A stretch of DNA of 45,477 nt from a bacterium (GCA_046760365.1 JBHIEA010000001.1:1-45477); one strand, 5' to 3'. Positions 8,130 to 38,726 are shown, numbered from the stretch's first letter. The notes: a model not told the origin generated them from the letters alone. Program-made: numbers and translations.

Positions 8130-8181
8130 GAAGAGAGGAAACGGCCAAATCCTGAAGAAAGGAAAGGCTGTTCCTCTCTTC
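8130..8181 (+). other. intercistronic stem-loop after the binding-protein gene
   Basis: GAAGAGAGGAAACGGCC ... GGCTGTTCCTCTCTTC form long imperfect arms. No convincing U-tract follows. Confidence 0.45.
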
Positions 8182-8338
8182 ACTTTGCTTGTTCGCTAAA
8201 AACCAAGCTAAGAGCAATGAAGGAAAGAAAAACAGGCGTTCCTTGTAATCACCATGCGCGCTTGAACGAATTATCCTGACGAATTGGTAAAGGGCCGCAG
8301 ACCTTAGCAGCTAGACTGGGCAGTTGGAGGAAAGGCAT

Positions 8339-10146: not shown

Positions 10147-10257
10147 TATTAATGGGGCGAATGTTCCCCCGGTCTGTTGGTCCGCCCATTTCTCCGCGTC
10201 TCAGTCCTAACTATTGGCAGGACTTAGAATCCGTGACAAAAACTCTAAGGTGAGGGC

Positions 10258-13250: not shown

Positions 13251-14180
13251 ATGAGTAAAGAAGATCTCGCCATTGGGGGCCAGGCAGTTATTGAGGGGGT
13301 GATGATGCGTGGTCCAAAGTCTTTCACCATTGCTCTGAGACAGGCGGATGGGGGTATCCTGGTAAGAAAGAATTCCTATATTGCTATGACCAAAAGAAAG
13401 AGATGGTTAGATATTCCCATCCTCAGAGGGGCTATAGTTCTAGTGGAGTCTTTATATCTGGGCATAAAAGCCTTAACCTTTTCAGCAGATCTGGCTATGG
13501 AGGATAAGGTGGCGGAAGCTACCAGCCAAGCTGATCATGAAATAGAATCGATGGACAAGGCATTTGGTACCCTTTGGCCTATTCTGATGGTGGTTGTGGG
13601 TCTTGGTTTGGGTATATTACTGTTTTTTTATCTTCCCTTAATCATCACCGATTTTCTCGGCATCAAAAAGGGGGTGCTTTTTAATCTGGTGGACGGAATG
13701 GTGAGAATGGGCATTTTTTTGATGTATATTTGGGCCATCGGCCTCTGGAAAGAAACCAGAAGAATATTTGAGTATCATGGGGCGGAACACAAAAGTATCG
13801 CTACCTTTGAGGCAGGCGAAGAGCTCACAATAAACAATGCTAAAAAACACACCACTGTTCATACCCGATGCGGTACCAGTTTCCTACTCGTGGTGATGAT
13901 CGTGAGTATCGGCATTTTCATTTTCCTGGGAAGGCCGACCTCCTTAGCCGAGCGCTTAATCAGATTTCTCTTTATTCCATTGATTGGTGGCATCTCATAT
14001 GAAATAATAAAAATCTCCTCCCGCTCTGACAATAGATTCATTCAGCTATTAGTTAAGCCGGGTCTTTGGCTACAGAAAATCACCACCCGCGAGCCCGATA
14101 ACGATCAACTGGAAGTGGCTATAGTGGCTTTAAAGGAAGCTCTGGGGAAACCCAAGGCTCAATCCGAAAGTTCCTGGTAA
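13251..14180 (+). CDS. DUF1385-family membrane protein (YqhQ-like)
   Basis: N-terminus GGQAVIEGVMMRG and the EYHGAEHK motif are characteristic of DUF1385. Several TM segments are present. Confidence 0.8.
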   Translation: MSKEDLAIGGQAVIEGVMMRGPKSFTIALRQADGGILVRKNSYIAMTKRKRWLDIPILRGAIVLVESLYLGIKALTFSADLAMEDKVAEATSQADHEIESMDKAFGTLWPILMVVVGLGLGILLFFYLPLIITDFLGIKKGVLFNLVDGMVRMGIFLMYIWAIGLWKETRRIFEYHGAEHKSIATFEAGEELTINNAKKHTTVHTRCGTSFLLVVMIVSIGIFIFLGRPTSLAERLIRFLFIPLIGGISYEIIKISSRSDNRFIQLLVKPGLWLQKITTREPDNDQLEVAIVALKEALGKPKAQSESSW

Positions 14181-14201
14181 TAAATGAAGGTGGTAGCGGA
14201 T

Positions 14202-15146
14202 ATGTCGAAGGAGAAACCCATACTGGTACTGGGCGGCATCAATATGGATTTTGTGGTGAGGGCAGAAAGAGTCCCTAAACCAGGAGAAACGCTCATAGGC
14301 TCTGACTTTTCTAAGATTCCGGGAGGTAAAGGAGCCAACCAGGCGGTTTCAATTGCCCGACTTGGAGGAAAGGCGGTCTTCGCCGGATGCGTAGGGGCCG
14401 ATCCTCTAGGAGAAGAGTTAAAACAAGGGCTGGAGAAAGAAAAGGTAGTCACAGACTGTGTTACCGTGGATAAGAAGGAGCACTCAGGGGTTACGGTGAT
14501 CATTATCAACAAGGATGGAGACAACAGTATCGTTCTGGACCCTGGAGCAAATATGAAATTTTCTCCCCAAAGGGCAGCTCTTCTTAAAGAGATTCTTCCC
14601 CGGGTAAGTATTGTCCTGGCCCAGCTTGAAGTACCGGTGACCACAGTTGACTTCATTTTTGGTGAAGCCAAGAGGCTTGGAATAACTACTGTTCTTGACG
14701 CAGGTCCAGCCAGATCCCTACCTTTATCGCTCCTTCAAAATACTGACATTCTCTCTCCCAATGAGACCGAACTTGAAGCTTTACTCAAGCGAGAGGTAAA
14801 AGACCTAGCAGAGGCCCAAAAAGGAGCAGAAGAGCTTGTTGGCTGGGGAGTAAAAGCTGTCATTTTGAAACTGGGAGAGAAAGGCTCGTATCTTTTAAGC
14901 CCTAAGAAAAGATCTTATTTCCCTGCTGTCAAGGTAAAGGTTGTGGATACGACTGCTGCTGGAGATGCTTTTATGGGTGCCTTATGTTTGGGTTTTAGTC
15001 AAGGTAGGTCCCTTCCTCAGGCCATAGAATTTGCCAATTTGGCAGGAGCATCGGCGGTCACCAAAATGGGTGCTCAGCCCTCACTCCCTACCCAGGAAGA
15101 AATGTGCAAATTGAGAAGAAATCTCATTACTCAAGAATGTAGATAA
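14202..15146 (+). CDS. rbsK: ribokinase (PfkB family)
   Basis: GGKGANQAV and DTTAAGDAF signature motifs. ATG 14202 (MSKEKPILVLGG) is preferred over 14184 because GAAGGTGG lies 7-9 nt upstream. Confidence 0.88.
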   Translation: MSKEKPILVLGGINMDFVVRAERVPKPGETLIGSDFSKIPGGKGANQAVSIARLGGKAVFAGCVGADPLGEELKQGLEKEKVVTDCVTVDKKEHSGVTVIIINKDGDNSIVLDPGANMKFSPQRAALLKEILPRVSIVLAQLEVPVTTVDFIFGEAKRLGITTVLDAGPARSLPLSLLQNTDILSPNETELEALLKREVKDLAEAQKGAEELVGWGVKAVILKLGEKGSYLLSPKKRSYFPAVKVKVVDTTAAGDAFMGALCLGFSQGRSLPQAIEFANLAGASAVTKMGAQPSLPTQEEMCKLRRNLITQECR

Positions 15147-18403: not shown

Positions 18404-18431
18404 TTGACAAAATACAGGTTGTGTATAGAAT
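18404..18431 (+). promoter_or_regulatory. sigma-70-like promoter of the glycine riboswitch transcript
   Basis: TTGACA at 18404-18409, a 16-nt spacer, then TAGAAT at 18426-18431. Confidence 0.45.
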
Positions 18432-18467
18432 TCAGAATGGTTGAAAATATGGTATGGCTAGAGGGCG

Positions 18468-18651
18468 ATTAAGGGAGAGACCAGAAACATCTGGCGCCGA
18501 AGGGGCAATCCTTAACTCCAAACTCTCAGGCAAAAGGACCTTAATTAGCTAGCTCTCTGGAGAAGCTTTCCTTAAATCTGATCAAGGAAAGAACCGAAGG
18601 GGCAGTCTTGCCTTGGTAGGCAAGACGAATCTCTCAGGTAAAAGGACAGAG
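18468..18651 (+). promoter_or_regulatory. tandem glycine riboswitch (two aptamers)
   Basis: Aptamer 1 has P1 ATTAAGG/CCTTAAT, GGAGAG, CTGGCGCCGAAGGGGCAA and CTCTCAGGCAAAAGGAC. Aptamer 2 has CTCTGGAGAA, ACCGAAGGGGCA and CTCTCAGGTAAAAGGACAGAG. These are the canonical conserved cores of the gcvT glycine riboswitch class. Confidence 0.92.
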
Positions 18652-18689
18652 GGCACGACACCCATCAAGTTGTCGTGTCCTCTTTTTTA
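18648..18689 (+). terminator. intrinsic terminator (expression platform of the glycine riboswitch)
   Basis: AGAGGGCACGACA (18648-18660) pairs with TGTCGTGTCCTCT (18671-18683), giving 13 bp with one G-U, then TTTTTT. Its 5' arm overlaps the 3' strand of aptamer-2 P1 (CAGAG). Confidence 0.85.
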
Positions 18690-18717
18690 TTGAGGATGAA
18701 GATACAGAGATTACTAG

Positions 18718-18930
18718 AGGGATAGGAATTTCAATAATTTCTCTGAATTGTTATCAAGTAAACCTCAGCAGACCAGATATCAGAAAAAAGAGGGGAGGCC
18801 TGCTCTCTCATGCCCTGAGCGGACGGGCAGAGTGCCGAAAGGCAGCGAGAGTCGGCTTTGCCGATCGAGCCGTCGAGGGGGGCATTCCGAAGGAATCGGC
18901 GAAGCCCTATTTCCCCCTCGAGTATCTTGT
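18718..18930 (+). repeat. unclassified ~200-nt intergenic repeat / candidate structured RNA, copy 1 (213 nt)
   Basis: Hand-aligned to 41621-41814 with about a dozen substitutions over ~186 alignable positions plus indels of 22, 4 and 1 nt. It contains hairpins AATAATT/AATTGTT, TGCC-GAAA-GGCA, TCGGC-TTT-GCCGA and ATTCC-GAA-GGAAT, and an 8-bp helix CGAGGGGG/CCCCCTCG. Confidence 0.85.
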
Positions 18931-18945
18931 GAGGGAGGGGCACCA

Positions 18946-20139
18946 ATGCAAATTGCAAGAAGAATGGGAAGACTAGGGACTGAAACTGCATTTGAAGTTT
19001 TGGCACAGGTAAATAGGCTCAAAGCAGAAGGCCAAGATATTATAAGTTTTGCTTTAGGAGAGCCTGATTTTGATACCCCTACGAATATTAAAGATGCAGC
19101 AATGAAGGCAATTACTGATGGTTATACTCATTACAGTCCCTCGGCTGGAATCCTTCCTTTGAGAGAGTCGATTGCGCACTACATTTCTGATACCAGAGGC
19201 ATGGGGGTGGAACCTGATGAGGTAGTGGTTACTCCCGGGGCAAAACCAATAATTTTTGATAGCATCCTTTCCTGTGTTAATGAAGGGGATGAGGTGATAT
19301 ATCCCAACCCGGGATTTCCCATCTATGAATCGGTTATAGACTTCTTAGGGGCAAAACCAGTTCCTCTTCCCCTTTTGGAAGAGAAAAACTTCAGTTTTGA
19401 TCCAGAGGATCTCAGGAGGAGAATAAGCCCCAGAACGAGGATGATCATTCTCAATTCTCCCCACAATCCCACCGGTGGCATCTTAAGTCAGGATGATCTG
19501 GAAACTATTGCTGAAATAGCTATGAAAAATGATCTGTGGATTTTGTCTGACGAGGTCTACTCTAAGATTATCTATGACGGGAAGTTTCAAAGTATCATTT
19601 CTATCCCGGGGATGAAGGAGAGAACGATTCTGGTGGATGGTTTTTCTAAGACTTATGCTATGACTGGCTGGCGATTGGGATTTGGCATAATGAAGAAGGA
19701 GTTGGCCGTAGATATTGCCAGAATAGAGACCAACGTTGATTCCTGTACGGCAACTTTTACCCAGTATGCGGGAATAGAGGCCCTGAAAGGTCCGCAGGAT
19801 GAATCTTCAGCCATGATAGCTGAATTTCAGAGAAGGCGAGATCTCATCTATGAGGAATTGAATGACATCGAGGGAATAAAGTGTCTGAAGCCGAAAGGAG
19901 CTTTTTACATATACCCAAATGTAACCGAGGCTTGCCGGAATCTAGATTTGGGTGACTCAAAGGAGCTTCAACAATATCTATTACACCGCGCAAAGGTAGC
20001 GGTATTGGCAAGAAGCTGTTTTGGCAGGCGAAACGAAGGGGAGAAAGAGGAATATATCAGATTGTCTTATGCGACTTCCAGAAAAAACATAATCGAAGGA
20101 GTAAAAAAAATTAAAAAAGCTATTGAATCTAAGTCTTAG
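18946..20139 (+). CDS. class-I PLP aminotransferase (aspartate/alanine aminotransferase type)
   Basis: 398 aa starting MQIARRMGRLGTETAFEV. Motifs are GEPDFDTP, NSPHNPTG and the PLP-lysine motif SKTYAMTGWRLGF. The SD GAGGGAGGGG lies 6 nt upstream. The longer ORF-track start (18748) runs through the non-coding repeat. Confidence 0.9.
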   Translation: MQIARRMGRLGTETAFEVLAQVNRLKAEGQDIISFALGEPDFDTPTNIKDAAMKAITDGYTHYSPSAGILPLRESIAHYISDTRGMGVEPDEVVVTPGAKPIIFDSILSCVNEGDEVIYPNPGFPIYESVIDFLGAKPVPLPLLEEKNFSFDPEDLRRRISPRTRMIILNSPHNPTGGILSQDDLETIAEIAMKNDLWILSDEVYSKIIYDGKFQSIISIPGMKERTILVDGFSKTYAMTGWRLGFGIMKKELAVDIARIETNVDSCTATFTQYAGIEALKGPQDESSAMIAEFQRRRDLIYEELNDIEGIKCLKPKGAFYIYPNVTEACRNLDLGDSKELQQYLLHRAKVAVLARSCFGRRNEGEKEEYIRLSYATSRKNIIEGVKKIKKAIESKS

Positions 20140-20174: not shown

Positions 20175-23100
20175 ATGGAAAAGAGACAGTTTTCATCAAA
20201 GGAAGCCTCCTCAGGAAAACGCGATCCGGCTTACTCAAATTTTCTCTTGGAGGAAAATCTCTCTGAGGTAGACCCTGATACGGACCTTATCATCGGTTTT
20301 GAGGAAGACCGGCAAGCCAAAAAGCTTATCCTCATTCCTTCCGAAAGCATCTGCCCCAAAGCTGTCCGCCAGGCCCTGGGCTCGGTCTTCACTAGCCTCT
20401 ATGCGGAAGGATATCCCCCCTTAAGAATGACCAGGGACGAAGAATCTCTGTTATTAGATTTCAAGGATCAGCTTGCCCACTGCCGACGCTATGCCGATAG
20501 ACGATTTTACAAAGGAGGTGAGTACGCCAATTTTGTTGAAGCTTTAGCCCAGAGGCGGGCCGCCCAATGCTTTGCTACCGATAACAGTCCCAATGCTCCC
20601 CTAAAGGTTGGGGCTGATCAAATATTTGTCAATGTACAACCTCTCTCCGGAGCAGCGGCTAATAACTCTGTGTATGAGGCTTTTGTTGAACCTGGTGATA
20701 CGGTTATGGGTATGGCTTTAGCCCATGGAGGCCATCTAACCCACGGCAGTGAGTTCAATCGATCCGGCAAGCGCTATCATATCGTTTCCTATGGAGTTAG
20801 TGAAGAAACCGGCAGATTAGATTATGAGGTGATCAAAAGGCTGGCCATCGAGCATAAACCAAAAATGATCATTGCCGGCTATACCTCCTATCCCTGGGCC
20901 CCTGACTGGCAGAAGTTCAGAGAGATTGCTGACAGTGTGGGAGCTATACTCTTCGCTGATATTGCTCATCCCGCGGGACTGGTGATTGCGGGGCAATATC
21001 CAAGTCCAGTTGGTTATGCTGACGTCATTACCTTAACCACTCATAAAACGCTCTGTGGTCCCCGTGGTGCAGTTATTTTGACTACCGATGAGGAAAAGGC
21101 CCAAAGAATAGACAATGCCGTCTTTCCTGGCGAGCAGGGGGGGCCTCACGTTAATAAGTTTGCCGCTATGGCGGTAGCTTTTAAGATTGCCCAAACAAAA
21201 AAGTTCAAAAAACTTCAAGAAAAAATTGTAGAAAATGCGCAGGTTCTGGTCTCTTCTCTTAAGAGGCGAGGCTTAGAGATAGCCTATGGAGGGACAAATA
21301 CTCACCTTTTGGTAATCGATCTAAGGGCTGTTAAAGCCAGGACGGGCTTTCCTCTAAAGGGTGAAATAGCTGCTCGCATCCTGGATCTTTGCGGCCTGGT
21401 GGTTAATAAGAACACTATTCCTGGTGATGAGACAGCCGCCGAGGCCAGCGGTGTCCGTCTGGGAACCCCCTGGATTACTCAGCGAGGACTAGGGAAAAAG
21501 GAGATAAAGAAGTTAGCCGAACTTATTCACCGGGTTATCACCAGGATTCAGCCTTTTAGCTACACAGGGCTGAAAGGGGATCTACCCCGAGGAAAGATAG
21601 ATTTAGAGACTCTTGAAGAAGTAAGACAGGAAGTAGCGGAACTGACCCAGACAGCCAAGGCTGAGACTTCCACCCATGAGCGAGCGGCTAAGCTTGGGTA
21701 TCCCCATTATGATGTTCCCGCAAAGCCTTCGGTAAAAAAGACCAGCTTACTTACGCAGCACCGGAAGCTGGGGGGGAAAATCGTCGAAAATAACGGTTGG
21801 GAAATGCCCATTCATTATGAAAATTTTACCGAAGAACTTAAAGCCGCCCGGATGACAGCGGTCATTTTCGACCTCGGCGACATGGGACTACTGAAGGTAA
21901 GTGGAGAAAGGGCCAAGCCCTTTCTCCAAGGGGTGTCTACCAAAAATCTAGCCGAGCTTAAGCCGGGAGAGTTCCTGCGTTCTTTTCTTCTGGACTCACA
22001 AGCTCAACTCATCGACGAGGTTTCTATTCTCTATTTAAATTGTGATAATAGTGGTAGAGACCATTATTTGGTAGTGACCAATCCGTCCCAGACTGAAAAG
22101 GTAAAGTCGTGGCTGCGGGGACTTTCCGACGGATATATTACTTTCGACCCCGATGATATATTTGCCAAAATTGAAGGACCAGCAGTAGTGGAGGACTTAG
22201 GAGAGACTGTTGAAAAAGGGTCACGCAGGATGGGAATAGCTTTGTACGGACCAAATTCTTCCAAAATCCTCAGGAAAATAGACTCTTCTTTGGGGAATCT
22301 TAAGAAATTTAATTTCCGGCAAGCGAAGATCGGACAAATCCAAGCCATCATCTCCCGAACCGGCTATACCAAGGACTCCTTAGGATTTGAATTCTATATC
22401 CACCCAAACGACGCCATCAAGCTCTGGAATCTACTTTTAAGACAAGGAAGGGAGTTTGGCATTAGGCCAGCCGGGCTTTTGACCAGAAATCATTTGCGCT
22501 CAGAAGCAGGTCCGCCTTCCCATGAAGATCCTAAATTCAAAACTCCCGGGCTTTCTCTATATAAGGCTCACCCCTCTCATTTTCATCTTTCAAAGCCTTA
22601 TTTTATTGGACAAAAGACTATTGATAAAGCGCTAGGATCCTTGGTAGCGAAAGAGGAGTTTCAATATAAGGAAGAGAAAGGGAAGCTAAGACAAAGTCCT
22701 CTGTATGATGAGCATTTGAAACTAGGGGCTAAGTTTGTTAAGTTTACCGGTTGGAAGATGCCTGTTTGTTACACCAGTATTAATGAGGAGCACCGGGCAG
22801 TAAGAGAGACAGCCGGGCTTTTTGATGTAGCCCATATGGGAGTAATAGAAATTGCGGGTGAGCACGCTGCCAGTTTCCTGGATACCGTTTCTACTAACTA
22901 CGTGCGATGGTTAAAAGATGGGCAATCTCAGTACGCCTACCTTCTCGATCCTGATGGCAATATCCTGGATGACGTTATGATCTATCGCCGCCATTGCCAT
23001 CGATATATGATGGTGGTCAATGCCGTTAATGAGCCCAAGATCTGGGCCTGGCTACGCGCTGTCAACTCCAAAAAATTTCTCATAGATCGAGACCATCCCA

Positions 23101-23921
23101 ATAAAGAGATTGAAGGAAAAGCGGTTCTCAGGAATCTAAAAGAGGCCTCATCCGGAAGGGATCAAAAAGTTGATCTGGCTCTCCAGGGCCCTAGTTCACT
23201 CTCCATATTACAGAAATTGGCAAAAGAGAAAGAGCTGAAGGGAAAATTAGCCAGAATTAGGAAAAATGAATTCCTGGAGGTTGAGCTTTCCGGAATTGAG
23301 ATGATAATTTCCCGGAGCGGTTATACCGGCGAAGATGTTGGCTATGAGCTTTATCTACATCCTGAAAACGCTACTCTCATTTGGAACCTGCTTTTAAGAG
23401 AGGGCAAAGATTTTGGCATTAAACCCTCTGGTCTGGGGGCCCGAGATTCAACCAGGATTGAAGCTGGTCTACCCTTATACGGACATGAGCTGGCTGGCAA
23501 ATACGGTATTACTCCTACTGAGGCTGGTTATGGGGCATTTGTTAAACTTCACAAACCCTACTTTATCGGGAAAAAGCGCCTTTTGAAAAGGCAACAGAGG
23601 AAAATGGAGATTATTCGTTTCAAGATGAAATCTAAAGGTATCAGAATGGTAAAATCAGAAGATCCCATCGTTGATGAAAAAGGCCAATACATTGGGAGAG
23701 TTACCAGTTGTGCTTTGGTGGGTGGGATTCAGCTTGGACTGGCTTATGTGGATAAAGATTTCGCAGAGGAAGGAAGAAAAATCGGAATATTTATTCTTCC
23801 GCGAGGAGGAAAATTTCTTCCAGAGGTCCCTAAAGATGAACTGATCAGAGGAGATAGGGTACTTCTTCACGAAGAAGCTATAGTCTTAAGCCGCTTCCCT
23901 GAAAAAAACAGCAGGATCTAG
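20175..23921 (+). CDS. three-domain fusion: divergent serine hydroxymethyltransferase-like domain + truncated GcvT-like domain + complete GcvT (aminomethyltransferase) domain
   Basis: Residues ~40-500 are SHMT-fold (SES..YAEGYP, GGHLTHG, TTHKTLCGPRG). Residues ~523-815 are GcvT-like (GWEMPIHY, FDLGDMGLLKVSG). Residues ~841-1248 are a canonical GcvT (GWKMPVCY, FDVAHMGVIEIAG, C-terminal barrel). Internal repeats pair up as KPYFIGQKT/KPYFIGKKR and LWNLLLRQGREFGIRPAGL/IWNLLLREGKDFGIKPSGL. Confidence 0.88.
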   Translation: MEKRQFSSKEASSGKRDPAYSNFLLEENLSEVDPDTDLIIGFEEDRQAKKLILIPSESICPKAVRQALGSVFTSLYAEGYPPLRMTRDEESLLLDFKDQLAHCRRYADRRFYKGGEYANFVEALAQRRAAQCFATDNSPNAPLKVGADQIFVNVQPLSGAAANNSVYEAFVEPGDTVMGMALAHGGHLTHGSEFNRSGKRYHIVSYGVSEETGRLDYEVIKRLAIEHKPKMIIAGYTSYPWAPDWQKFREIADSVGAILFADIAHPAGLVIAGQYPSPVGYADVITLTTHKTLCGPRGAVILTTDEEKAQRIDNAVFPGEQGGPHVNKFAAMAVAFKIAQTKKFKKLQEKIVENAQVLVSSLKRRGLEIAYGGTNTHLLVIDLRAVKARTGFPLKGEIAARILDLCGLVVNKNTIPGDETAAEASGVRLGTPWITQRGLGKKEIKKLAELIHRVITRIQPFSYTGLKGDLPRGKIDLETLEEVRQEVAELTQTAKAETSTHERAAKLGYPHYDVPAKPSVKKTSLLTQHRKLGGKIVENNGWEMPIHYENFTEELKAARMTAVIFDLGDMGLLKVSGERAKPFLQGVSTKNLAELKPGEFLRSFLLDSQAQLIDEVSILYLNCDNSGRDHYLVVTNPSQTEKVKSWLRGLSDGYITFDPDDIFAKIEGPAVVEDLGETVEKGSRRMGIALYGPNSSKILRKIDSSLGNLKKFNFRQAKIGQIQAIISRTGYTKDSLGFEFYIHPNDAIKLWNLLLRQGREFGIRPAGLLTRNHLRSEAGPPSHEDPKFKTPGLSLYKAHPSHFHLSKPYFIGQKTIDKALGSLVAKEEFQYKEEKGKLRQSPLYDEHLKLGAKFVKFTGWKMPVCYTSINEEHRAVRETAGLFDVAHMGVIEIAGEHAASFLDTVSTNYVRWLKDGQSQYAYLLDPDGNILDDVMIYRRHCHRYMMVVNAVNEPKIWAWLRAVNSKKFLIDRDHPNKEIEGKAVLRNLKEASSGRDQKVDLALQGPSSLSILQKLAKEKELKGKLARIRKNEFLEVELSGIEMIISRSGYTGEDVGYELYLHPENATLIWNLLLREGKDFGIKPSGLGARDSTRIEAGLPLYGHELAGKYGITPTEAGYGAFVKLHKPYFIGKKRLLKRQQRKMEIIRFKMKSKGIRMVKSEDPIVDEKGQYIGRVTSCALVGGIQLGLAYVDKDFAEEGRKIGIFILPRGGKFLPEVPKDELIRGDRVLLHEEAIVLSRFPEKNSRI

Positions 23922-24058: not shown

Positions 24059-26119
24059 ATGCCAATTATGGATTCTAAGACAGGAAAGATAAGAAGGGAA
24101 TATAAAATGGAAGAATTGACAGAGAAAGTGAGGCAAATGAGAGCTTATAATATGGTTAGTCTTACTGCGGCTGGCTCAGGACACACCGGGGGGACTCTGT
24201 CAATTATGGATATTGCCGCCGCCTTATATCTCAAAAAAATAAGACATGACCCCAAAAATCCTCATTGGGAAGATCGGGACAGAGTTTTCTGGTCTACCGG
24301 TCACAAAGCTCCGGCTCTTTATGTAGCTTTGGGTGAAGCAGGTTATTTTCCAGTAAAAGAAGTGGTGAAGTTAAGGAAATTATGGTCTGGTTTTGAAGGT
24401 CATCCCCATAGATTGAGACTACCCGGAGTTGAGCTTTCCGCAGGATCTTTAGGGCAGGGTCTGGGGGTGGCCGTAGGTTGTGCACTTAATGCTAAATTAG
24501 AAGGGGAAAACTACCAAGTGTATTCCATTAATGGAGATGGAGAACTTGATGAGGGTTCTATCTGGGAGGCCGTAATGTGTGCTGCTCATTATAAGTTAGA
24601 CAACCTGGTATGTATTGTTGACAGAAATGGCTTGCAAATTGATGGCCCCACCGAGGAAGTCATGAGATTGGAATCTCTGGCTGATAAATGGAGAGCCTTT
24701 GGATGGAATACTATTTCAATAGACGGTCATAATATGGAAGAGATCCTGGATGCCCTTGATGAAGCGGAGAAGGTGAAAGGAAAACCATCAGTAATAATCG
24801 CTAAAACCACCAAAGGAAAAGGCGTTTCCTATGCTGAGAATGTAGTAGGTTATCACGGTATCGCTCCTAAAGATGGAAGATCAGGCAATGAGTCATTGGA
24901 CCAGGCCTTAGAGGACATAGGAGATGCGTCTTTTACTAAAGATAAAGTAGATAGACTACTAAAAATTGCTGATGATTACCAAAACCAAGTGAATAAGAAG
25001 GTAGAAGCTTCCATGCCTAGCTTTAGCAGAAATTACTGGTGGAATTCAGCTAATCGAATGAAAGTTGAGATGGATGCTACCCGAAATGGCTTTGGTAGGG
25101 CTATAGAAAAATTAGGCCGAGATAAAAGAGTGGTGGCATTGGGGGCTGATATTACCAGTTCCATAAGGATGGATAGATTCTACGCCCAACATCCCGAGAG
25201 GAAAAAGAGGTTTTTCAGCATGGGGATAGCTGAGGCTAATATGGCTCTGGTTGCCTCTGGTTTAGCCAAAGAGGGGAAAATACCATTTATTGGGTCCTAC
25301 GGAGTTTTCGCAACCGGTAGAAATTGGGATCAGCTAAGAACTACCGTATGTTATAACAACTTCAATGTAAAAGTTGCCGATGCTCATGGTGGTATTTCAG
25401 TGGGGCCAGATGGAGCTACCCATCAAGCATTGGAGGAAATTACCAACATCTGCTATTTACCCAATATGCATATGGCCATCCCTTGTGATTCAATTGAGAC
25501 CGAAAAAGCGACAGAATTTATTGCTTTCATTGAGGGACCTGCGGTGGTTAGGTACGCCAGGGAAGCAACTCCCGTGGTGACCACCAAGGATACTCCCTAT
25601 GAGTTTGGTTTAGCCAATATAATAAGATACCGAGGTGAGAAAAAAAAATTCATCGAGGCATTTGAGGTAAAGCTCTCCCCCGGTTATGAATCAGAAAATG
25701 AAGATTTAACGGTAATTGCCTGTGGACCTATGGTGCCGGAAGCAATGAGGGCGGCTTACATTTTAAAAGAAGAATACGGAATTGAGGCAAGAATACTAAA
25801 CGTCCATACAGTTAAGCCAATCGATAAGAAGGCAGTTGTAAAAGCAGCGGAAGAAACAGGTATCATCATAACTGCGGAGGAACACCAGGTTGGCGGTTTT
25901 GGAAATATTGTTGCGGGAGTGATAGCACAGGGTAAGAGATATGATGCACCCCTGTTAATGGATATGGTGGGGGTGGAGGATAAGTTTGGTGAATCTGGAC
26001 AACCCTGGGAGTTGATGAAGACATTCGGATTAACGGCTGAGCACATTGCAAAAAAAGCCAAAAATTTATACGATCAAAAAAATAGAAATAGCCTGCATGT
26101 TGATAGAAAAGGAGTTTAA
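24059..26119 (+). CDS. tkt: transketolase, single polypeptide made of the N-terminal and C-terminal halves of the split type
   Basis: N-terminal half has GSGHTGGTLS and the ThDP motif NGDGELDEGSIWEA. A ~50-aa linker follows. The C-terminal half has the Pyr domain (FFSMGIAEANM) and a C-terminal domain. AGGAG lies 8 nt upstream. Confidence 0.88.
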   Translation: MPIMDSKTGKIRREYKMEELTEKVRQMRAYNMVSLTAAGSGHTGGTLSIMDIAAALYLKKIRHDPKNPHWEDRDRVFWSTGHKAPALYVALGEAGYFPVKEVVKLRKLWSGFEGHPHRLRLPGVELSAGSLGQGLGVAVGCALNAKLEGENYQVYSINGDGELDEGSIWEAVMCAAHYKLDNLVCIVDRNGLQIDGPTEEVMRLESLADKWRAFGWNTISIDGHNMEEILDALDEAEKVKGKPSVIIAKTTKGKGVSYAENVVGYHGIAPKDGRSGNESLDQALEDIGDASFTKDKVDRLLKIADDYQNQVNKKVEASMPSFSRNYWWNSANRMKVEMDATRNGFGRAIEKLGRDKRVVALGADITSSIRMDRFYAQHPERKKRFFSMGIAEANMALVASGLAKEGKIPFIGSYGVFATGRNWDQLRTTVCYNNFNVKVADAHGGISVGPDGATHQALEEITNICYLPNMHMAIPCDSIETEKATEFIAFIEGPAVVRYAREATPVVTTKDTPYEFGLANIIRYRGEKKKFIEAFEVKLSPGYESENEDLTVIACGPMVPEAMRAAYILKEEYGIEARILNVHTVKPIDKKAVVKAAEETGIIITAEEHQVGGFGNIVAGVIAQGKRYDAPLLMDMVGVEDKFGESGQPWELMKTFGLTAEHIAKKAKNLYDQKNRNSLHVDRKGV

Positions 26120-26199
26120 GCTTTTGCTGGTCTAGACAGATTTTCTCAACAAAATTAGGTTAAAAAATCCTCTTGAAAGCATCTCTTAAGGAGAATAGA

Positions 26200-26586
26200 T
26201 TGTATTCAAAAGATTTAAAGTATACCGAAACTCACGAGTGGGTAAAAGTCGATAGGGGCTTTGTTACCGTAGGCATTACCGATTTCGCCACCAAACAGCT
26301 AACAGACCTTGTCTATGTAGAACTTCCCATGATAGGGGAAAAAGTTACCCGAGGCTCCTCCTTGGGAGTTATAGAGTCGGTCAAAGCTGTCTCTGATTTG
26401 TACTCCCCCGTAAGTGGAACCATAGTCGAGGTAAATGAGAAATTATCTAAAGAACCAGAAATAGTAACTCAAGATCCTTACGGTGAAGGGTGGATGATCA
26501 AGATAAAGATAGAGGATCCCGCTGAACTAGATACTTTGATGGATTCAGAGGAATATGAGGACCTGGTAAGGAAGGAAAAAAAGTGA
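26200..26586 (+). CDS. gcvH: glycine cleavage system H protein
   Basis: Lipoyl-lysine motif ESVKAVSDLYSPVSG and N-terminus DLKYTETHEWV. TTG 26200 is preferred because AAGGAGA lies 5-6 nt upstream; the ORF track opens at TTG 26173. Confidence 0.9.
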   Translation: MYSKDLKYTETHEWVKVDRGFVTVGITDFATKQLTDLVYVELPMIGEKVTRGSSLGVIESVKAVSDLYSPVSGTIVEVNEKLSKEPEIVTQDPYGEGWMIKIKIEDPAELDTLMDSEEYEDLVRKEKK

Positions 26587-27929
26587 TTCCCTATATTCCC
26601 AATACCGAAGAAGACCAAAAGGAGATGCTAAAAGAGATAGGAGCTGGGTCCATAGAAGACCTGTTCGATAGTATCCCTCAGAATTTACTACTAAAAAACG
26701 ACCTCAGTCTTCCCTCATCGATGTCAGAGATGGAGCTAGTTAATGAGCTTAAGGGTCTATCTCGAAAAAACACCAATTTAGATGAATACGTCTCTTTTCT
26801 GGGAGCAGGAAGTTATGATCATTTTATCCCTTCCCTGGTTGATCATCTCTCCGGCAGGTCCGAATTTTATACCTCTTACACTCCCTATCAGGCAGAGGCC
26901 AGTCAGGGAATCCTGCAAGCCACTTATGAATATCAAAGCCTTATCTGCGAGCTTTTTCAAATGGATGTCTGTAATGCCTCGCTTTATGAGGGGGCAACCG
27001 CCTTGGCTGAGGCAGTCATCCTGGCTCATAGGGTTAATCATCGCCAGAAAGTGTTAGTAGCTAAAACTCTTCACCCAGAGTATCGTCAGGTTCTCACCAC
27101 CTATATAAAGAAAACCTTGGGTCTGTCTATAATAGAGATAGACTACGAGGATGGGGTGACGGATCTTACTAAATTAGAAGAAACGATTGATAAAGATACA
27201 AGCTGCGTGGTCATCCAGAATCCTAACTTTTTTGGTTGTCTGGAGAAAGTTAACGGAATAGAAAAAATTACCCACCGAGCTGGTTCTTTATACATTGTCT
27301 CGGTGGATCCCATATCCTTAGGGATGCTTATTCCTCCGGCAGAGTACCATGCCGATATCGCCGTAGGCGAAGGACAAGCCTTGGGAGGTAAACTTAATTT
27401 CGGAGGACCATATTTAGGAATTTTTACGTCTAAGACCGAATTCTTGAGAAAAATGCCGGGGAGAATCGTGGGAGAGACCATCGATAAAAAGGGAAGAAGA
27501 GGATTCGTCTTAACCTTACAAACTAGAGAACAGCATATACGGAGAGAACGGGCAACCTCAAATATCTGTACCAACCAGGCTCTGAATGCTTTGAGAGCTA
27601 CCATATACCTCTCCACCCTGGGAGAGGAAGGGTTGGCTCAGGTAGCTAATCTGTGTCTGCAAAAATCACATTACGCCGCTAAGAGAATTTACCAGATTCC
27701 TGGATTTGAGCCTACCTTTGCCAGTCCCTTTTTTAAAGAATTCGCGGTAAGATGTCCCCTCTCGCCTCATAAGATAAATAAGCTGCTCTGGGACAATAAG
27801 ATCCTGGGGGGATTTGACCTGGGAAGATTTTCCCCAGAACTGGAGAATTCCTTATTATTCAGCGTAACTGAAAAAAGAACCCGGGAGGAGATCGATAAAC
27901 TCACCCTGCTTTTGGAAGATATGGTATGA
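26583..27929 (+). CDS. gcvPA: glycine dehydrogenase (decarboxylating) subunit 1
   Basis: 448 aa with the typical N-terminus IPYIPNTEEDQKEMLKEIG. The GTG start overlaps the gcvH stop by 4 nt. Confidence 0.92.
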   Translation: MIPYIPNTEEDQKEMLKEIGAGSIEDLFDSIPQNLLLKNDLSLPSSMSEMELVNELKGLSRKNTNLDEYVSFLGAGSYDHFIPSLVDHLSGRSEFYTSYTPYQAEASQGILQATYEYQSLICELFQMDVCNASLYEGATALAEAVILAHRVNHRQKVLVAKTLHPEYRQVLTTYIKKTLGLSIIEIDYEDGVTDLTKLEETIDKDTSCVVIQNPNFFGCLEKVNGIEKITHRAGSLYIVSVDPISLGMLIPPAEYHADIAVGEGQALGGKLNFGGPYLGIFTSKTEFLRKMPGRIVGETIDKKGRRGFVLTLQTREQHIRRERATSNICTNQALNALRATIYLSTLGEEGLAQVANLCLQKSHYAAKRIYQIPGFEPTFASPFFKEFAVRCPLSPHKINKLLWDNKILGGFDLGRFSPELENSLLFSVTEKRTREEIDKLTLLLEDMV

Positions 27930-29386
27930 GAGAGCCTCTAATATTTGAGAAAACTAGGCCAGAAAGAAGCGGATGTTTGCTTCCTGAGTGTGACGTCGAG
28001 AAGGAGGATCTGGAAAAGCTGGTCCCTAAAAAATATCTCCGCCAAGGTAGTTTAGGCTTGCCCCAGGTAAGTGAGCCCGATTTGGTGCGTCATTTCGTGC
28101 GGCTCTCTCAGCAAAATGTGGGGGTAGATACCAATTTTTATCCCCTGGGGTCCTGCACTATGAAGTACAATCCTAAGGTAAACGAGGATATGGCCCAGCT
28201 ACCGGGCTTTACCAGAGTCCACCCCTATCAGCCTGAGGCTGGGGTACAGGGAATCCTGCAGCTACTTTATGAAATGGAAAAGCTTCTATGTGAGATATCC
28301 GGGATGGATAGGGTGTCACTACAGCCAGCCGCTGGAGCTCATGGGGAGCTTACTAGTTTAATGATGATAAAGGCTTACTATGAGGATAAAAAAGAAAAAA
28401 GAGATATCGTCCTTATACCCGACTCTGCTCACGGGACCAATCCTGCTAGTTCTCGCGTCTGTGGATTTCGAACGGTAGAGGTAAAATCGAATAAAGAGGG
28501 AGGAATAGATTTACCTGACCTAAAGGGGAAGACGAGCAGAAAAGTAGCTGCTTTAATGGTTACTATTCCCAACACCCTGGGTCTATTTGAGAGAAATATC
28601 CTCAAGGCTGCCCAAATTGTCCATGATAGGGGTGGCTTTCTTTACCTAGACGGAGCCAATCTCAATGCCCTCTTAGGAATAGTTAAACCGTCTGAAATGG
28701 GAATAGATATAATGCACTTTAATCTCCACAAGACTTTTTCCACCCCTCATGGAGGAGGAGGCCCCGGTTCGGGACCGGTGGGTGCAAAAGGAAAGCTCAC
28801 CCACTATTTACCGACTCCTATAGTAGAAAAAGATACTCAAGGCTATTATCTTGAATATGCTAGACCCAAATCTGTAGGAAGGGTTCGATCTTTTTATGGG
28901 AATATCGAGGTCATCATAAAAGCATACTGTTATCTTAGATCTTTGGGGAAAGAAGGATTAAAGAAGATAAGCCATAATGCCGTCTTGAATGCCAATTACC
29001 TCATGAAACGACTAAAAAAGTTCTTCTATCTTCCTTATGATGGGCCCTGTATGCATGAGTTTGTCCTCTCGGCAGAAGACGGAAAGTTGAACGGTGTAAA
29101 AGCCTTGGACATTGCTAAACGCCTTTTGGACTTCGGCTTTCATCCTCCTACCATATATTTTCCCTTAATAGTGAAAGAGGCTTTGATGATTGAGCCTACC
29201 GAGACCGAGTCCAAGGAAACCCTGGATGAGTTTGTATCTTGTATGATTCAAATTAGACGCGAGATGGAAGAGGATCCCTCTTTGATTAAGCAGGCTCCTC
29301 ATAACTTGTCCATTGGGCGGCTGGATGAGGTAAAGGCAGCTAAAGAGCTGAAGTTAAGATGGAAACAAAAAGAGAGTGGCGATTGA
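27926..29386 (+). CDS. gcvPB: glycine dehydrogenase (decarboxylating) subunit 2
   Basis: 486 aa with the PLP-lysine region HFNLHKTFSTPHGGGGPG. The ATGA overlap with gcvPA indicates translational coupling. Confidence 0.92.
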   Translation: MREPLIFEKTRPERSGCLLPECDVEKEDLEKLVPKKYLRQGSLGLPQVSEPDLVRHFVRLSQQNVGVDTNFYPLGSCTMKYNPKVNEDMAQLPGFTRVHPYQPEAGVQGILQLLYEMEKLLCEISGMDRVSLQPAAGAHGELTSLMMIKAYYEDKKEKRDIVLIPDSAHGTNPASSRVCGFRTVEVKSNKEGGIDLPDLKGKTSRKVAALMVTIPNTLGLFERNILKAAQIVHDRGGFLYLDGANLNALLGIVKPSEMGIDIMHFNLHKTFSTPHGGGGPGSGPVGAKGKLTHYLPTPIVEKDTQGYYLEYARPKSVGRVRSFYGNIEVIIKAYCYLRSLGKEGLKKISHNAVLNANYLMKRLKKFFYLPYDGPCMHEFVLSAEDGKLNGVKALDIAKRLLDFGFHPPTIYFPLIVKEALMIEPTETESKETLDEFVSCMIQIRREMEEDPSLIKQAPHNLSIGRLDEVKAAKELKLRWKQKESGD

Positions 29387-30090
29387 TTGATTCTGGTTAT
29401 CGAGATGCTTATACCAATATGGCTATAGACGAGGCCGTATTCCTCATGAGAGAGAAACTGGGCCTTCCTTCTACCCTTCGATTCTATGGCTGGAAACCAG
29501 CGGCTATCTCTATCGGTTACTTTCAGAGAATAGAAGATCCTTCCTTAAAAGAATATAAGAGACAAAGACTAACCATTGTCAGGCGCTTCACCGGAGGAGG
29601 CGCGATATTGCATAGAGGTGAGATCACCTATTCTTTAGCTTGCTCTGCCCATGAATTTGCTGCCTTTAGAGAGATTATAAAAACACAAAAGCTCGTTCAT
29701 GAGGCTATAATCCTCGGTCTACAAAATCTGGGGATGAAGGCCGAGTTAAAAAGAAAGAAGATTAAAAGACCCAATCCCTATTTTTGTTTTGTCTATCCCT
29801 CAAAATACGATGTGGTTGAAGCCGGAAGAAAGATTGTGGGAAGCGCCCAAAGGAGAAAAAATAGAGCCTTTTTTCAACACGGATCGATTTTAATAGACAA
29901 TAAGATTACCCCTAAAGGTATCAAAGAGAAAAAAGATAGGGAGAAAATTATAGACAGCCTCATCTGGGGATTTGAGAAAAAACTTGGGATAAGACTATTG
30001 CCTGGCCAGTTAACCAAAGAAGAGGTGAAACTATCCCATAAATTAAAGAAGGCTAGATACAGCACCCGAAGTTGGAATTATCGAAGATAG
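29359..30090 (+). CDS. lipoate-protein ligase / octanoyltransferase family protein (catalytic domain only)
   Basis: 243 aa with RRFTGGGAILH and the KIVGSAQRR lysine motif of the LplA/LipM/LipB fold. It overlaps the gcvPB 3' end by 28 nt. Confidence 0.8.
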   Translation: METKREWRLIDSGYRDAYTNMAIDEAVFLMREKLGLPSTLRFYGWKPAAISIGYFQRIEDPSLKEYKRQRLTIVRRFTGGGAILHRGEITYSLACSAHEFAAFREIIKTQKLVHEAIILGLQNLGMKAELKRKKIKRPNPYFCFVYPSKYDVVEAGRKIVGSAQRRKNRAFFQHGSILIDNKITPKGIKEKKDREKIIDSLIWGFEKKLGIRLLPGQLTKEEVKLSHKLKKARYSTRSWNYRR

Positions 30091-30766: not shown

Positions 30767-32812
30767 ATGTACAGGTTGAGCACAGACGTGGGGGGAACTT
30801 TTACCGATGGGGTCCTGCTCGATGAGAGTAATGGAATGATCAAGATAAGCAAGGTCTCTTCCACCCCTAAGAATCCTGCCCTTGGCACTATTGAATGCAT
30901 GGAGAGATTCGAGATTCCTCTGGGCGAAGTTTCTTTCTTGGTTCATGGAACTACTGTGGTGATCAATGCCTTGCTTGAGGGTAAGGGTGCAAAGACAGGC
31001 TTGATCACTACAAAGGGGTTCAGGGATGTGCTGGAAATTGGTCGAAGCAACCGGACCCAGATGTACAACGCCCTTTATAAGAAGCCCACCCCCCTTGTCC
31101 CAAGATACCTCAGACTCGAGATCAAAGAAAGGATGGGAGGGAACGGGGAGGCGTTGGCTCCTCTGGCCATCGATGATCTTGCCAAGATCATCGAGCATTT
31201 GCGCAAGGAAAACGTCCAATCAATAGCAGTCTGTCTCGTCAACGCCTATGCCAATCCCAAACATGAGCGGGAGATAGGCGGGCTGTTGGACAAGCAGTAT
31301 CCTGAGGCAACCGTATCCCTCTCACACAATATTACCAGACGGTACTACGAATATGAACGGACTAGCACCACTGTCCAGAATGCGTATGTGATGCCAGTAG
31401 TGCGAACGTACCTGGGAAGCCTGGAAGAGGAGCTTGCAAAACGCCGCTTTCAAAGCATCTTGCAAATCATGCAGTCCAATGGGGGTATCATGACGTCCGC
31501 CGTTGCCAGGGACATGCCTATCTCAATGGTCGAATCAGGCCCCGTGGCTGGCGCGATCGGAGGAGCCCAGCTGGCCAGCATGATCGGATATAGCAACGTT
31601 ATCACCTACGACATGGGAGGTACCACCGCTAAGACCTCCATTATCAGGGAAGGATTGCCGGAGACCACAGATCAATATCTGGTCGAGGAGCGTCCCATCC
31701 TGCTCCCTGTAGTTGATATGCGCGAGATTGGGGCTGGTGGGGGGAGTATCGCCTGGATTGATGAGGCGGGAGCCCTACATGTGGGGCCACGAAGTGCTGG
31801 AGCTGAGCCAGGTCCAGCATGCTATATCCAAGGTGGCACAGAACCTACAGTGACGGATGCGGATCTACAGTTGGGTATCTTGGACCCAGACTATTTCCTG
31901 GGGGGTGAGAAGCATATCTCGCCCGAGCTTAGCCATAAAGCCATAGAAAAGGTCGCTCGTTATTTTGACATCAGCGTTGATGAGGCAGCATTGGGCATCG
32001 TCAAGATTGTCAACAACAACATGTCGGGGTTATTGCAGTCCGTGACGGTTAAACGCGGGTATGATCCGAGAGAATTTGCCATGGTCGCATTTGGCGGGGC
32101 AGGACCCACTCATGCTGCCGCCATCGCCAGGGAGCTGAATATCCCAACAGTTATTGTTCCACCGTCTCCTGGAGTATTCTCTGCCTGGGGGATGTTGATG
32201 GCAGACCTGAGGCATGACTTTAGCCAGACTTACATCACTTCCGTCGATCAGGCCGATATGGAATCAATAAATGGTATATTCAGAGAGTTGGAAGTGCGGG
32301 TAAAGGATCTCTTCGAGCGTGAGAATATCTCCGATGAGAAGATAGTAGTGAGCCACGAAATGGACCTCAGGTATTATGGGCAGGAGCACACATTGAGTGT
32401 TCCGGCTCCTTCTAAACCTACCGATGCTGATAAGGCCATACTAGAGGACAGGTTTGATAACCTTCATCTTAAGGTGTACGGCCATAACGCTCCCCAGGAG
32501 CCTAAGGAGGTTGTCTCGCTCAAGGTCACAGGTATTGGTAAGGTAAGAAAACCCGTTTTGCAGAGTATTGAGTGCGGAAGTGAGACGCCTGCGTCAGAGT
32601 CCAGGGTGGGAGTAAGAAAAGTCTACCTGGGAGGCAGCAGGCATCAGGAATTCAGCATCTATCAGCGCAATAAACTTCGGGCAGGAAACATCATACCAGG
32701 CCCGGCCATTATTGAAGAGCCAACTTCGACTACTGTGGTCGAAAAGGGCCAGATTTGCTCGGTAGACCAATATGGCAGTCTCATCATTGCTCTGAATGAG
32801 GAGGGAGAATGA
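30767..32812 (+). CDS. hyuA: hydantoinase/oxoprolinase family protein, A subunit
   Basis: 681 aa with the N-terminus RLSTDVGGTFTD typical of HyuA/OplA ATP-dependent lactam hydrolases. Confidence 0.9.
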   Translation: MYRLSTDVGGTFTDGVLLDESNGMIKISKVSSTPKNPALGTIECMERFEIPLGEVSFLVHGTTVVINALLEGKGAKTGLITTKGFRDVLEIGRSNRTQMYNALYKKPTPLVPRYLRLEIKERMGGNGEALAPLAIDDLAKIIEHLRKENVQSIAVCLVNAYANPKHEREIGGLLDKQYPEATVSLSHNITRRYYEYERTSTTVQNAYVMPVVRTYLGSLEEELAKRRFQSILQIMQSNGGIMTSAVARDMPISMVESGPVAGAIGGAQLASMIGYSNVITYDMGGTTAKTSIIREGLPETTDQYLVEERPILLPVVDMREIGAGGGSIAWIDEAGALHVGPRSAGAEPGPACYIQGGTEPTVTDADLQLGILDPDYFLGGEKHISPELSHKAIEKVARYFDISVDEAALGIVKIVNNNMSGLLQSVTVKRGYDPREFAMVAFGGAGPTHAAAIARELNIPTVIVPPSPGVFSAWGMLMADLRHDFSQTYITSVDQADMESINGIFRELEVRVKDLFERENISDEKIVVSHEMDLRYYGQEHTLSVPAPSKPTDADKAILEDRFDNLHLKVYGHNAPQEPKEVVSLKVTGIGKVRKPVLQSIECGSETPASESRVGVRKVYLGGSRHQEFSIYQRNKLRAGNIIPGPAIIEEPTSTTVVEKGQICSVDQYGSLIIALNEEGE

Positions 32813-34563: not shown

Positions 34564-34578
34564 AGGAGGGTGCTTAGC

Positions 34579-35697: not shown

Positions 35698-35872
35698 GTG
35701 AAATTAGATCTTGGCAAAGGAAGAATCAAAACTTAGGCTGGAAGGAGGTGAAAAGCAGGTAGGTCTGTAATTCGGACGACGAAAGTTTTCCAAAAAAGGA
35801 AAAGCATTAAGTAGCTGAATCTCTTTTTAGAGAGTAGCAGGGAAAGATGAACCAAGTCTTTAGTAGGAGGCG

Positions 35873-38723: not shown

Positions 38724-38726
38724 GTC

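Follow-up and report, generated by a model that had tools for sequence, protein, structure and literature searches.

A Predicted Serine Hydroxymethyltransferase/T-Protein Fusion with a Degenerate Internal T Module in a Bacterial Glycine Cleavage Operon

Introduction

The direct hand-over of 5,10-methylene-tetrahydrofolate (methylene-THF) from the glycine decarboxylase complex to serine hydroxymethyltransferase (SHMT) has long been debated, for example in plant photorespiration. Here we analyze a stretch of bacterial DNA of 45,477 nucleotides (GCA_046760365.1, JBHIEA010000001.1:1-45477; the window) in which a single open reading frame (ORF) joins an SHMT module, a GcvT-fold module without the C-terminal barrel (T1), and a complete GcvT (T2), the aminomethyltransferase, or T-protein, that belongs to the glycine cleavage system (GCS). 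The product is probably a bifunctional SHMT/T-protein that is induced by glycine and in which T1 serves as a non-catalytic adaptor.

The described proteins closest to the two outer modules are stand-alone enzymes. GcvT (T. maritima, 1WOO; B. subtilis, 1YX2; E. coli, 3A8I) shares with T2 the three-domain layout (seen for T2 by alignment), the five tetrahydrofolate (THF) contacts, the catalytic aspartate, and the setting with gcvH-gcvPA-gcvPB under a glycine riboswitch. T2 differs in that it is covalently preceded by an SHMT and a truncated T paralogue; in addition, T1 and T2 each carry an insertion of ~20-30 residues after domain 2, and T2 ends in a C-terminal extension that is not found in solved T-proteins. 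GlyA (B. stearothermophilus, 1KKJ; E. coli, 1DFO) has the same pyridoxal phosphate (PLP) fold, TTHK lysine, and catalytic and folate residues as the SHMT module, which departs from it by SES in place of SEN (aa 56-58), by two insertions (24 and 12 residues), and by a C-terminal extension of ~40 residues.

GcvT-fold modules are likewise fused to a partner enzyme in dimethylglycine oxidase and dehydrogenase (DMGO and DMGDH), the alpha subunit of sarcosine oxidase (SoxA), and trimethylamine N-oxide demethylase (Tdm), in which a reactive one-carbon intermediate is passed to THF within one protein. Proteins of the DMGO/SoxA/Tdm type were found among the sequence and structural neighbors of T1 and T2. 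In these enzymes a single folate module is joined to the oxidase or demethylase from which the one-carbon unit comes, whereas here the partner SHMT would consume the folate-bound unit and one of the two T modules is degenerate. Two consecutive folate-dependent activities are also carried on one polypeptide by dihydrofolate reductase-thymidylate synthase, formiminotransferase-cyclodeaminase, and FolD, bifunctional enzymes for which channeling has been proposed or shown. Their folds and chemistry differ, and we know of none in which a pseudo-enzyme copy of one of the partners acts as a spacer. In YgfZ/Iba57, there is precedent for a GcvT fold working non-catalytically and without the canonical THF contacts (PMC9551070). 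These proteins are distant structural matches of T1, which is much nearer to true T-proteins (template modeling score TMq of 0.76 versus ~0.5), lacks the third domain, and exists only inside the fusion. None of the relatives compared combines an SHMT with a T-protein or has a spacer made of a degenerate T copy. Taken by themselves, the SHMT and T2 modules are typical of the SHMT and GcvT families, with no new chemistry.

Results and Discussion

Architecture of the Fusion

The 1248-residue protein, whose mass is estimated from its length at ~138 kDa, contains the modules SHMT, T1, and T2 in that order (Table 1). In a Pfam scan of the whole protein, SHMT (PF00464) was matched with 396.8 bits (cut-off of 27), GCV_T with a total of 419.7 bits over two stretches, and GCV_T_C weakly at aa 1147-1207. 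The NCBIfam models for GcvT, NF001567 and TIGR00528, gave 454 and 391 bits against cut-offs of 300 and 235.85, respectively, and the model for SHMT, NF000586, gave 432.8 bits against a cut-off of 335. Scans of the separate modules agreed with this layout, and the three-module architecture that had been proposed in an earlier sequence-only reading of the window is thus borne out, with profile support for both the SHMT fold and the first GcvT-like module. The motifs quoted in that reading are all present in the translation: TTHKTLCGPRG, SES, FDLGDMG, and three pairs of paralogous segments, GWEMPIHY/GWKMPVCY and SKPYFIGQKT/HKPYFIGKKR among them. FDLGDMG of T1 had been set against the canonical FDVSHMG; its actual counterpart in T2 is FDVAHMG.

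T1 and T2 are paralogues, with 37% identity across 305 residues (E value of 7e-67, 203 bits), and only ~25 residues separate the KPYFIGQ segment of T1 from the start of T2. T1 is closer to T2 than to any solved T-protein (at most 108 bits), and this relation, together with an insertion of similar length in both modules, fits an internal duplication. From the alignments, T1 appears to have arisen through duplication of the T module, as had been suggested.

The Outer Modules

The SHMT module is likely to be catalytically competent, since it scores above the family cut-offs, its catalytic residues are invariant, and the model of a homolog matches solved SHMTs. E78 (in YAEGYP), H187 (in GGH), D262, H265, K291, R297, N413, and R428 were found to be invariant among 82 family members of 42-85% identity. 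They were located by motif alignment to the residues that we take to be characteristic of the SHMT family, which are, in E. coli numbering, E57, Y65, H126, D200, H203, K229, R235, N347, and R363. For structural comparisons of the whole chain we used the AlphaFold model of a natural homolog of 1197 residues that has the same architecture and is 57% identical to the window protein. The SHMT part of this model adopts the fold-type I PLP fold and matches solved SHMTs with a TMt of about 0.96 (0.93-0.97).

The insertion of about 25 residues that had been noticed in this module is present, and in a HMMER alignment to solved SHMTs it measures 24 residues (aa 86-109), between YAEGYP and RFYKGGEY. It is kept across the family and is predicted to be helical in the homolog model. 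A further insertion of 12 residues is located near aa 135-146, and the C-terminal extension leads to the linker. The NCBIfam model for long SHMTs, NF010094 (PRK13580), was matched in part, with 309 bits against a cut-off of 735, and the insertion and C-terminal extension may have been inherited from a long-SHMT lineage instead of having evolved for the fusion. Short sequences considered as stand-alone relatives carrying the SHMT or T2 insertion were rejected as fragments of fusions, either ending in T1 or beginning with the tail of T1.

T2 is likewise probably competent, because it exceeds the GcvT equivalog cut-off, aligns with T-proteins from end to end, and is invariant at 14 motif positions. 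When the C-terminal module was scanned alone, GCV_T was matched with 256 bits and GCV_T_C with 23.6 bits, the latter against a cut-off of 25.9. The alignment with solved T-proteins nevertheless runs through the barrel, up to residue 347 of the 364 residues of 1WOO, and the homolog model has a beta-rich C-terminal domain. All 86 sequences compared are identical at the 14 motif positions, which include the five THF contacts. The canonical contacts in human GcvT are Met56, Asp101, Tyr197, Glu204, and Arg233 (PMC9551070), and their equivalents in T2 are M888, D933, Y1050, E1058, and R1090, each found in 86 of 86 sequences. The catalytic aspartate was taken to be the second residue of the DD pair, from the single D-to-N difference between PDB entries 3A8I and 3A8K, the latter titled ETD97N (D97N). 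The earlier description of the second T module as canonical is upheld by these results.

The Degenerate Middle Module

When the middle segment (aa 506-838) was scanned alone, GCV_T (PF01571) was matched with 170 bits and an E value of 7.7e-50 over positions 3-234 of the 255 in the profile, and no GCV_T_C barrel was found in this segment by the Pfam scan. T1 is a GcvT-like module that lacks the barrel and has a degenerate motif, as had been recognized before. Modeled alone, T1 of the window protein gave a predicted local distance difference test score (pLDDT) of 88.9 and a predicted template modeling score (pTM) of 0.88. The best structural matches of this model were the true T-proteins 1YX2 and 1WOO (TMq of 0.76, TMt of 0.70), and the TMt value fits the absence of the third domain.

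Conservation within T1 is low: 7.8% of its positions are invariant, compared with 28% in the SHMT module and 23% in the T2 core. The histidine of the SHM motif is replaced by aspartate in 83 of the 86 sequences, and the GYTGE motif is lost in the family alignment. The methionine, tyrosine, and glutamate contacts are kept in 43, 55, and 62 sequences, respectively; the catalytic position is aspartate in 73 and glutamate in 12, E615 of the window protein included. The length of the segment from SHMT to T2 is bimodal (284-367 or 200-229 residues). In a mini class, which accounts for 91 of 212 family members (about 40%), T1 is cut to one subdomain; the tyrosine, glutamate, and arginine folate contacts are deleted in 82-84 of these 91 proteins, and the catalytic position is aspartate in only 26.

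What is retained instead is a loop with the pattern W..LSDGY..FD..D...K..GP, which is the sole universally conserved feature of T1. In the full and mini classes together, G668 is found in 210, P669 in 211, and D652 in 203 of the 212 proteins. The loop lies within the insertion relative to canonical T-proteins; the T2 insertion at the same place is of similar length and has a different sequence. According to module hidden Markov models (HMMs), every fusion retains at least T1 positions ~40-148 (window aa ~570-678), which correspond to T-protein domain 2 and the next loop, and no direct join of SHMT to T2 without T1 was found among the fusions examined with these models. The ratio of nonsynonymous to synonymous substitution rates (dN/dS), measured against seven close orthologs (loci L005-L011) for which dS is unsaturated, was determined to be 0.16-0.25 for T1, compared with 0.15-0.19 in the T2 core and 0.08-0.13 in SHMT. 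Purifying selection thus acts on T1, as it does on the junction regions of the fusion.

The best reading of these data is that T1 is a non-catalytic adaptor derived from a T-protein. The folate and catalytic residues are not conserved family-wide and are deleted in the mini class, and the loop motif is conserved in their place. Although T1 has the GcvT fold, it fails at the catalytic aspartate (in the window protein), at the SHM and GYTGE motifs, and at the barrel, and it should not be filed as a member of the T-protein type. The sequence-only reading was right that the middle module is GcvT-like and degenerate; it is better understood as an adaptor than as a second enzyme.

Two other roles for T1 were considered. 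It could be a non-catalytic module that binds folate or another ligand, either as an anchor for a captive folate or as a folate or glycine sensor that regulates the enzyme. In the full class, the only one for which this proposal overlaps with an adaptor role, the DD pair is kept in 73 of 86 sequences, the equivalent of Arg233 in 83, a second arginine in 83, and an acidic residue at the position of Glu204 in 72; purifying selection and the rigid packing of the whole-chain model (below) would also be accommodated. The residues are missing from the mini class, however, so that folate binding cannot be the function of T1 across the family, and the cavity is incomplete without the barrel. We therefore consider this role possible but doubtful.

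That T1 is a second active T-protein, so that the chain would hold two aminomethyltransferase sites in addition to SHMT, is unlikely. T1 does pass the Pfam GCV_T threshold, is under purifying selection, and has a T-protein-like fold, and in the window protein it keeps the equivalents of Met56, Tyr197, Glu204, and Arg233 and has a conservative replacement of Asp by Glu at the catalytic position. What it lacks is the C-terminal barrel, the domain by which the folate cavity of T-proteins is closed and on which the polyglutamate patch is located (PMC9551070). The near-universal loss of the motif histidine, the lack of a conserved GYTGE, and the threefold lower fraction of invariant positions relative to the T2 core point in the same direction, and the fusion persists in the 91 proteins from which the folate-contact half has been deleted.

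Whole-Chain Model

The model of the 57%-identical homolog has a mean pLDDT of 90.2 and a pTM of 0.89, with low confidence only at the linker between SHMT and T1 and at the extreme C-terminus. For a chain of three modules, this pTM implies that, in the model, they are packed in a defined and compact arrangement. The T1 loop has pLDDT values of 91-95 in the whole chain of the homolog and of about 70-88 in the isolated T1 model of the window protein, a cross-protein comparison that gives a faint hint that the loop is stabilized by contacts to the other modules. In a fold search with the whole-chain model, only SHMT matches were obtained (TMq of 0.34 or less), and no solved structure spanning more than one third of the chain was found.

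Operon and Glycine Riboswitch

The fusion gene is located in a string of genes that are read from the same strand (Table 1). A glycine riboswitch aptamer (RF00504), whose 65.5 bits exceed the gathering score of 32, was found ahead of the aminotransferase gene that opens the string and after the MFS gene that precedes it. It is probably followed by a second, tandem aptamer; the tandem-type model RF03166 scored 70.3 bits over 18458-18653, below its cut-off of 110. The expression platform is an intrinsic terminator with a 13-bp stem (ΔG of -22.7 kcal/mol, z of -3.98), which is followed by UUUUUUAUU. The ATG start of the aminotransferase gene was inferred from the lengths of orthologs, and a listed TTG start at 18748 is probably spurious. 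Downstream of the fusion there are genes for a transketolase, GcvH, GcvPA, GcvPB, and a lipoate-protein ligase-like protein, and the link to glycine cleavage suggested earlier is supported by these genes and by the riboswitch. No separate gcvT was found in the string, either in the window or in a tblastn screen of related loci, and the fusion therefore fills the T-protein slot.

The order aminotransferase, fusion, transketolase, gcvH, gcvPA, gcvPB, and lplA is common to the Aerophobetes loci. The riboswitch is kept ahead of the aminotransferase-fusion string in four of these (L004, L008, L009, and L011), and in L009 and L011 a second RF00504 aptamer scores above the threshold. Among 40 related loci with at least 4 kb of downstream sequence, gcvH, gcvPA, and gcvPB lie within 10 kb of the fusion in 19; by class, the counts are 8 of 25 (full) and 11 of 15 (mini).

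A glycine riboswitch with a terminator platform before a gcvT operon, as in Bacillus subtilis, is the classical ON switch for the disposal of excess glycine. If the same polarity holds here, the operon would by analogy be a glycine-consuming device.

The T modules might alternatively serve a donor other than the GCS, such as a methylamine- or betaine-derived compound, and place the one-carbon unit on THF for use by SHMT, as DmdA, DMGO, SoxA, and Tdm would suggest. The GcvT fold is widely reused among demethylases, gcvH/P genes are not adjacent in about half of the loci, and one mini-class copy (L002) adjoins a methyltransferase of the MttB family. T2, however, scores above the GcvT equivalog cut-offs and far below the NCBIfam cut-offs for DmdA, SoxA, Tdm, and LigM; gcvH-gcvPA-gcvPB are adjacent in the window and in the 19 informative loci, with no separate gcvT; and the operon carries a glycine riboswitch. 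A donor of this kind is thus very unlikely.

Several further observations were made on the gene neighborhoods. In L002, the MttB-family gene (13610-15070) comes after the mini-class fusion, and a GntR regulator and an aminotransferase are encoded upstream; a borderline match to PYLIS_3, a pyrrolysine insertion element, was detected at 14575-14672, where the 38.3 bits barely exceed the gathering score of 38. In the window, the riboswitch terminator is separated from the aminotransferase ATG by a partly G+C-rich leader of ~250 nucleotides (18696-18945), for which no Rfam family was matched. In L009 and L011 only about 80 nucleotides lie between the aminotransferase gene and the second aptamer. 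A transketolase inside a riboswitch-controlled gcv operon that begins with an aminotransferase related to aspartate aminotransferase (AspAT) is found in the Aerophobetes clade (the window, L004, L006-L011, and L035). In some Chloroflexota loci (L003, L034, and L039) a split transketolase lies ~4 kb from the fusion, and its neighbors in L003 are genes for a GlcF-like Fe-S protein and for a glycerate kinase (MOFRL). One may speculate that the transketolase neighborhood reflects the onward metabolism of serine via hydroxypyruvate or glycerate.

Table 1. Positions of the fusion, its modules and key residues, and the surrounding operon elements in the window
Feature	Position	Strand	Remarks
Promoter-like TTGACA-16-TAGAAT	18404..18431	+	11/12 matches; consensus match only; upstream of riboswitch
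Glycine riboswitch aptamer 1 (RF00504)	18462..18551	+	65.5 bits vs gathering score 32, E 1.7e-11
Probable second (tandem) glycine aptamer	18552..18653	+	
Intrinsic-terminator hairpin and U-run (expression platform)	18648..18695	+	overlaps 3' end of aptamer region
Class I/II (AspAT-like) aminotransferase, first operon gene	18946..20139	+	
SHMT-T1-T2 fusion ORF	20175..23921	+	1248 aa, ATG start, no interruption
SHMT module (aa 1-505)	20175..21689	+	profile match; C-terminal extension with linker aa ~455-505
24-aa insertion (aa 86-109), YAEGYP...YYGG active-site loop of SHMT	20430..20501	+	gap relative to solved SHMTs
PLP lysine K291 in TTHKTLCGPRG	21045-21047	+	T-T-H-K motif
T1 (aa 527-815)	21753..22619	+	T-protein domains 1 and 2 only, no C-terminal barrel
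T1 Glu615 in place of catalytic Asp	22017-22019	+	
T1-specific loop motif W646..LSD652GY654..F657D658..D661...K665..G668P669	22110..22181	+	
T2 (aa 838-1248), complete GcvT (aminomethyltransferase), C-terminal barrel by alignment	22686..23921	+	profile, alignment
T2 catalytic Asp D933	22971-22973	+	
Transketolase	24059..26119	+	NF004559, 624 bits vs cut-off 488
gcvH (H-protein)	26173..26586	+	
gcvPA (P-protein subunit 1)	26583..27929	+	
gcvPB (P-protein subunit 2)	27926..29386	+	
Lipoate-protein ligase-like gene (LplA/B catalytic domain)	29359..30090	+	under NCBIfam cut-offs

Distribution of the Fusion

The protein had been thought to have an architecture outside standard annotation. This proved not to be so, since the fusion is neither rare nor unannotated: it is present in the NCBI database as GcvT, and it occurs in hundreds of species represented by metagenome-assembled genomes (MAGs). 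The identical protein is deposited at NCBI from a MAG and is named only glycine cleavage system aminomethyltransferase GcvT; the fusion is thus already in the sequence databases, although half of its function does not show in the name. Full-length homologs with 53-85% identity, at least 120 in number, were found in Aerophobetes, in Anaerolineae/Chloroflexota, in MAGs labeled as Actinobacteria, and in metagenomes, and an exhaustive search of 50%-identity representatives gave about 70 fusion clusters of at least 1000 residues. With a narrow, T1-specific motif alignment as the probe, 457 stretches confirmed by tblastn were identified in GTDB species genomes. Details were obtained for 80 listed loci among these. 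All 80 are from MAGs, which belong to Aerophobetes, several classes of Chloroflexota, Acetothermia, Poribacteria, and a few bins of Thermoplasmata/Methanomassiliicoccales, and wherever the contig allows, the T1 motif is flanked by an SHMT on one side and a complete T module on the other, all on one strand. No cultured host was found; a second homolog search that started from the copy of an Ardenticatenia genome returned only MAG and metagenome sources.

The source is a metagenome-assembled contig, and an assembly or annotation artifact, in which a chimera or frameshift had fused glyA to gcvT, is effectively refuted because hundreds of independent assemblies from several phyla contain this ORF in collinear form at 42%-90% identity (uninterrupted across the junctions in L005-L011, for example, at 82-85% amino acid identity), with junction regions that are under purifying selection.

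The fusion was also seen in three bins labeled as Thermoplasmata/Methanomassiliicoccales (L048, L079, and L074, the last a Methanomassiliicoccales chromosome, CP070739.1), where it is 52-62% identical to the window modules; this suggests either transfer between domains or mis-binning. One Aerophobetes MAG, SOJT01 (E44_bin3), has three fusion-bearing contigs (L005, L010, and L013). Copies with a mini T1 that have an aminotransferase gene upstream and no riboswitch were observed in Aerophobetes MAGs (L017 and L054) and in an unclassified bin (L071). The Aerophobetes lineage may therefore hold more than one fusion paralogue. The pair P0019 and P0096, considered as two paralogues on one contig, was ruled out, since the P0096 contig has a single fusion.

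Proposed Function

We infer that the outer modules are active, that T1 is non-catalytic, that flux runs from glycine to serine, and that folate may be handed from T2 to SHMT. In this lineage, glycine would switch on the whole gene string through the upstream riboswitch and its terminator platform. One polypeptide would then provide both an SHMT and the T component for the GcvH and GcvPA/GcvPB proteins encoded downstream. When glycine is abundant, the P- and H-proteins would deliver an aminomethyl group, carried on the lipoyl arm of GcvH, to T2, which would release NH3 and form methylene-THF. The SHMT module would use methylene-THF and a second glycine to make serine, with regeneration of THF, for a net reaction of 2 Gly -> Ser + CO2 + NH3 + 2[H]. 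T1 would act mainly as a rigidly packed adaptor between SHMT and T2, with its conserved loop as an interface between modules. Hand-over of the folate from T2 to SHMT through physical proximity, the channeling put forward in the sequence-only reading, is plausible; it would accord with the chemistry, with the predicted compact structure, and with an operon inducible by glycine.

Several points weigh against this proposal. The full class keeps much of the folate-site signature in T1 (the DD pair and the equivalents of Arg233 and, in 62 of 86 sequences, Glu204), and T1 of the window protein may for this reason have residual folate binding or even activity. The pTM of 0.89 belongs to the homolog and not to the window protein. 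The window encodes no L-protein. The direction of flux would follow only if the operon behaves as glycine riboswitches classically do. No riboswitch was detected in 14 loci of the Chloroflexota type or the mini class, and in about half of the loci the fusion has no gcvH/P genes next to it; regulation, and perhaps the partner proteins, therefore differ between lineages. Finally, no description of an SHMT-T-protein fusion was found in the literature.

A more far-reaching version of the bifunctional SHMT/T-protein proposal can be offered tentatively. The fusion could be a self-contained converter of glycine to serine in which a captive folate cycles between T2 and SHMT by way of the T1/loop interface or a tunnel. 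Taken as a whole, the cycle, with the methylene group loaded at T2 from the aminomethyl-H-protein and unloaded at SHMT onto a second glycine, seems to us rather improbable, if conceivable. At the level of the operon, the aminotransferase and transketolase might carry serine via hydroxypyruvate to sugar phosphates. If true, such a path would be an undescribed route of glycine assimilation in Aerophobetes.

Other Features of the Window

Three further regions of the window were noted. The first 132 nucleotides contain two tRNA genes, the first of which is cut by the window edge. A cellobiose/beta-glucoside cluster (3825-12735) encodes a GH1 beta-glucosidase, a LacI regulator, a sugar ABC transporter, and a GH94 cellobiose phosphorylase, which fits the description of Aerophobetes as saccharolytic. 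At ~30767-41577 the G+C content rises to 0.50-0.55 from about 0.42-0.45, and the genes encode a hydantoinase/oxoprolinase of the HyuA/HyuB type, a prolidase- or creatinase-like Creatinase_N plus M24 peptidase, and a peptide ABC transporter of the Opp type. This region may be a laterally acquired island for amino acid or peptide catabolism beside the gcv operon.

Conclusions

The natural covalent fusion of an SHMT and a T-protein, widespread in Chloroflexota and Aerophobetes, provides a testable model for the coupling of the GCS to SHMT, and a part that is already at hand for engineering modules of the glycine/serine or reductive-glycine kind. T1, kept under purifying selection as a putative structural adaptor, would be a clean case of a pseudo-enzyme domain that arose from an internal duplication. 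Thousands of database entries that are named only GcvT or glycine hydroxymethyltransferase would be bifunctional, and metabolic reconstructions of the uncultured lineages that carry the fusion may wrongly call glyA or gcvT missing.

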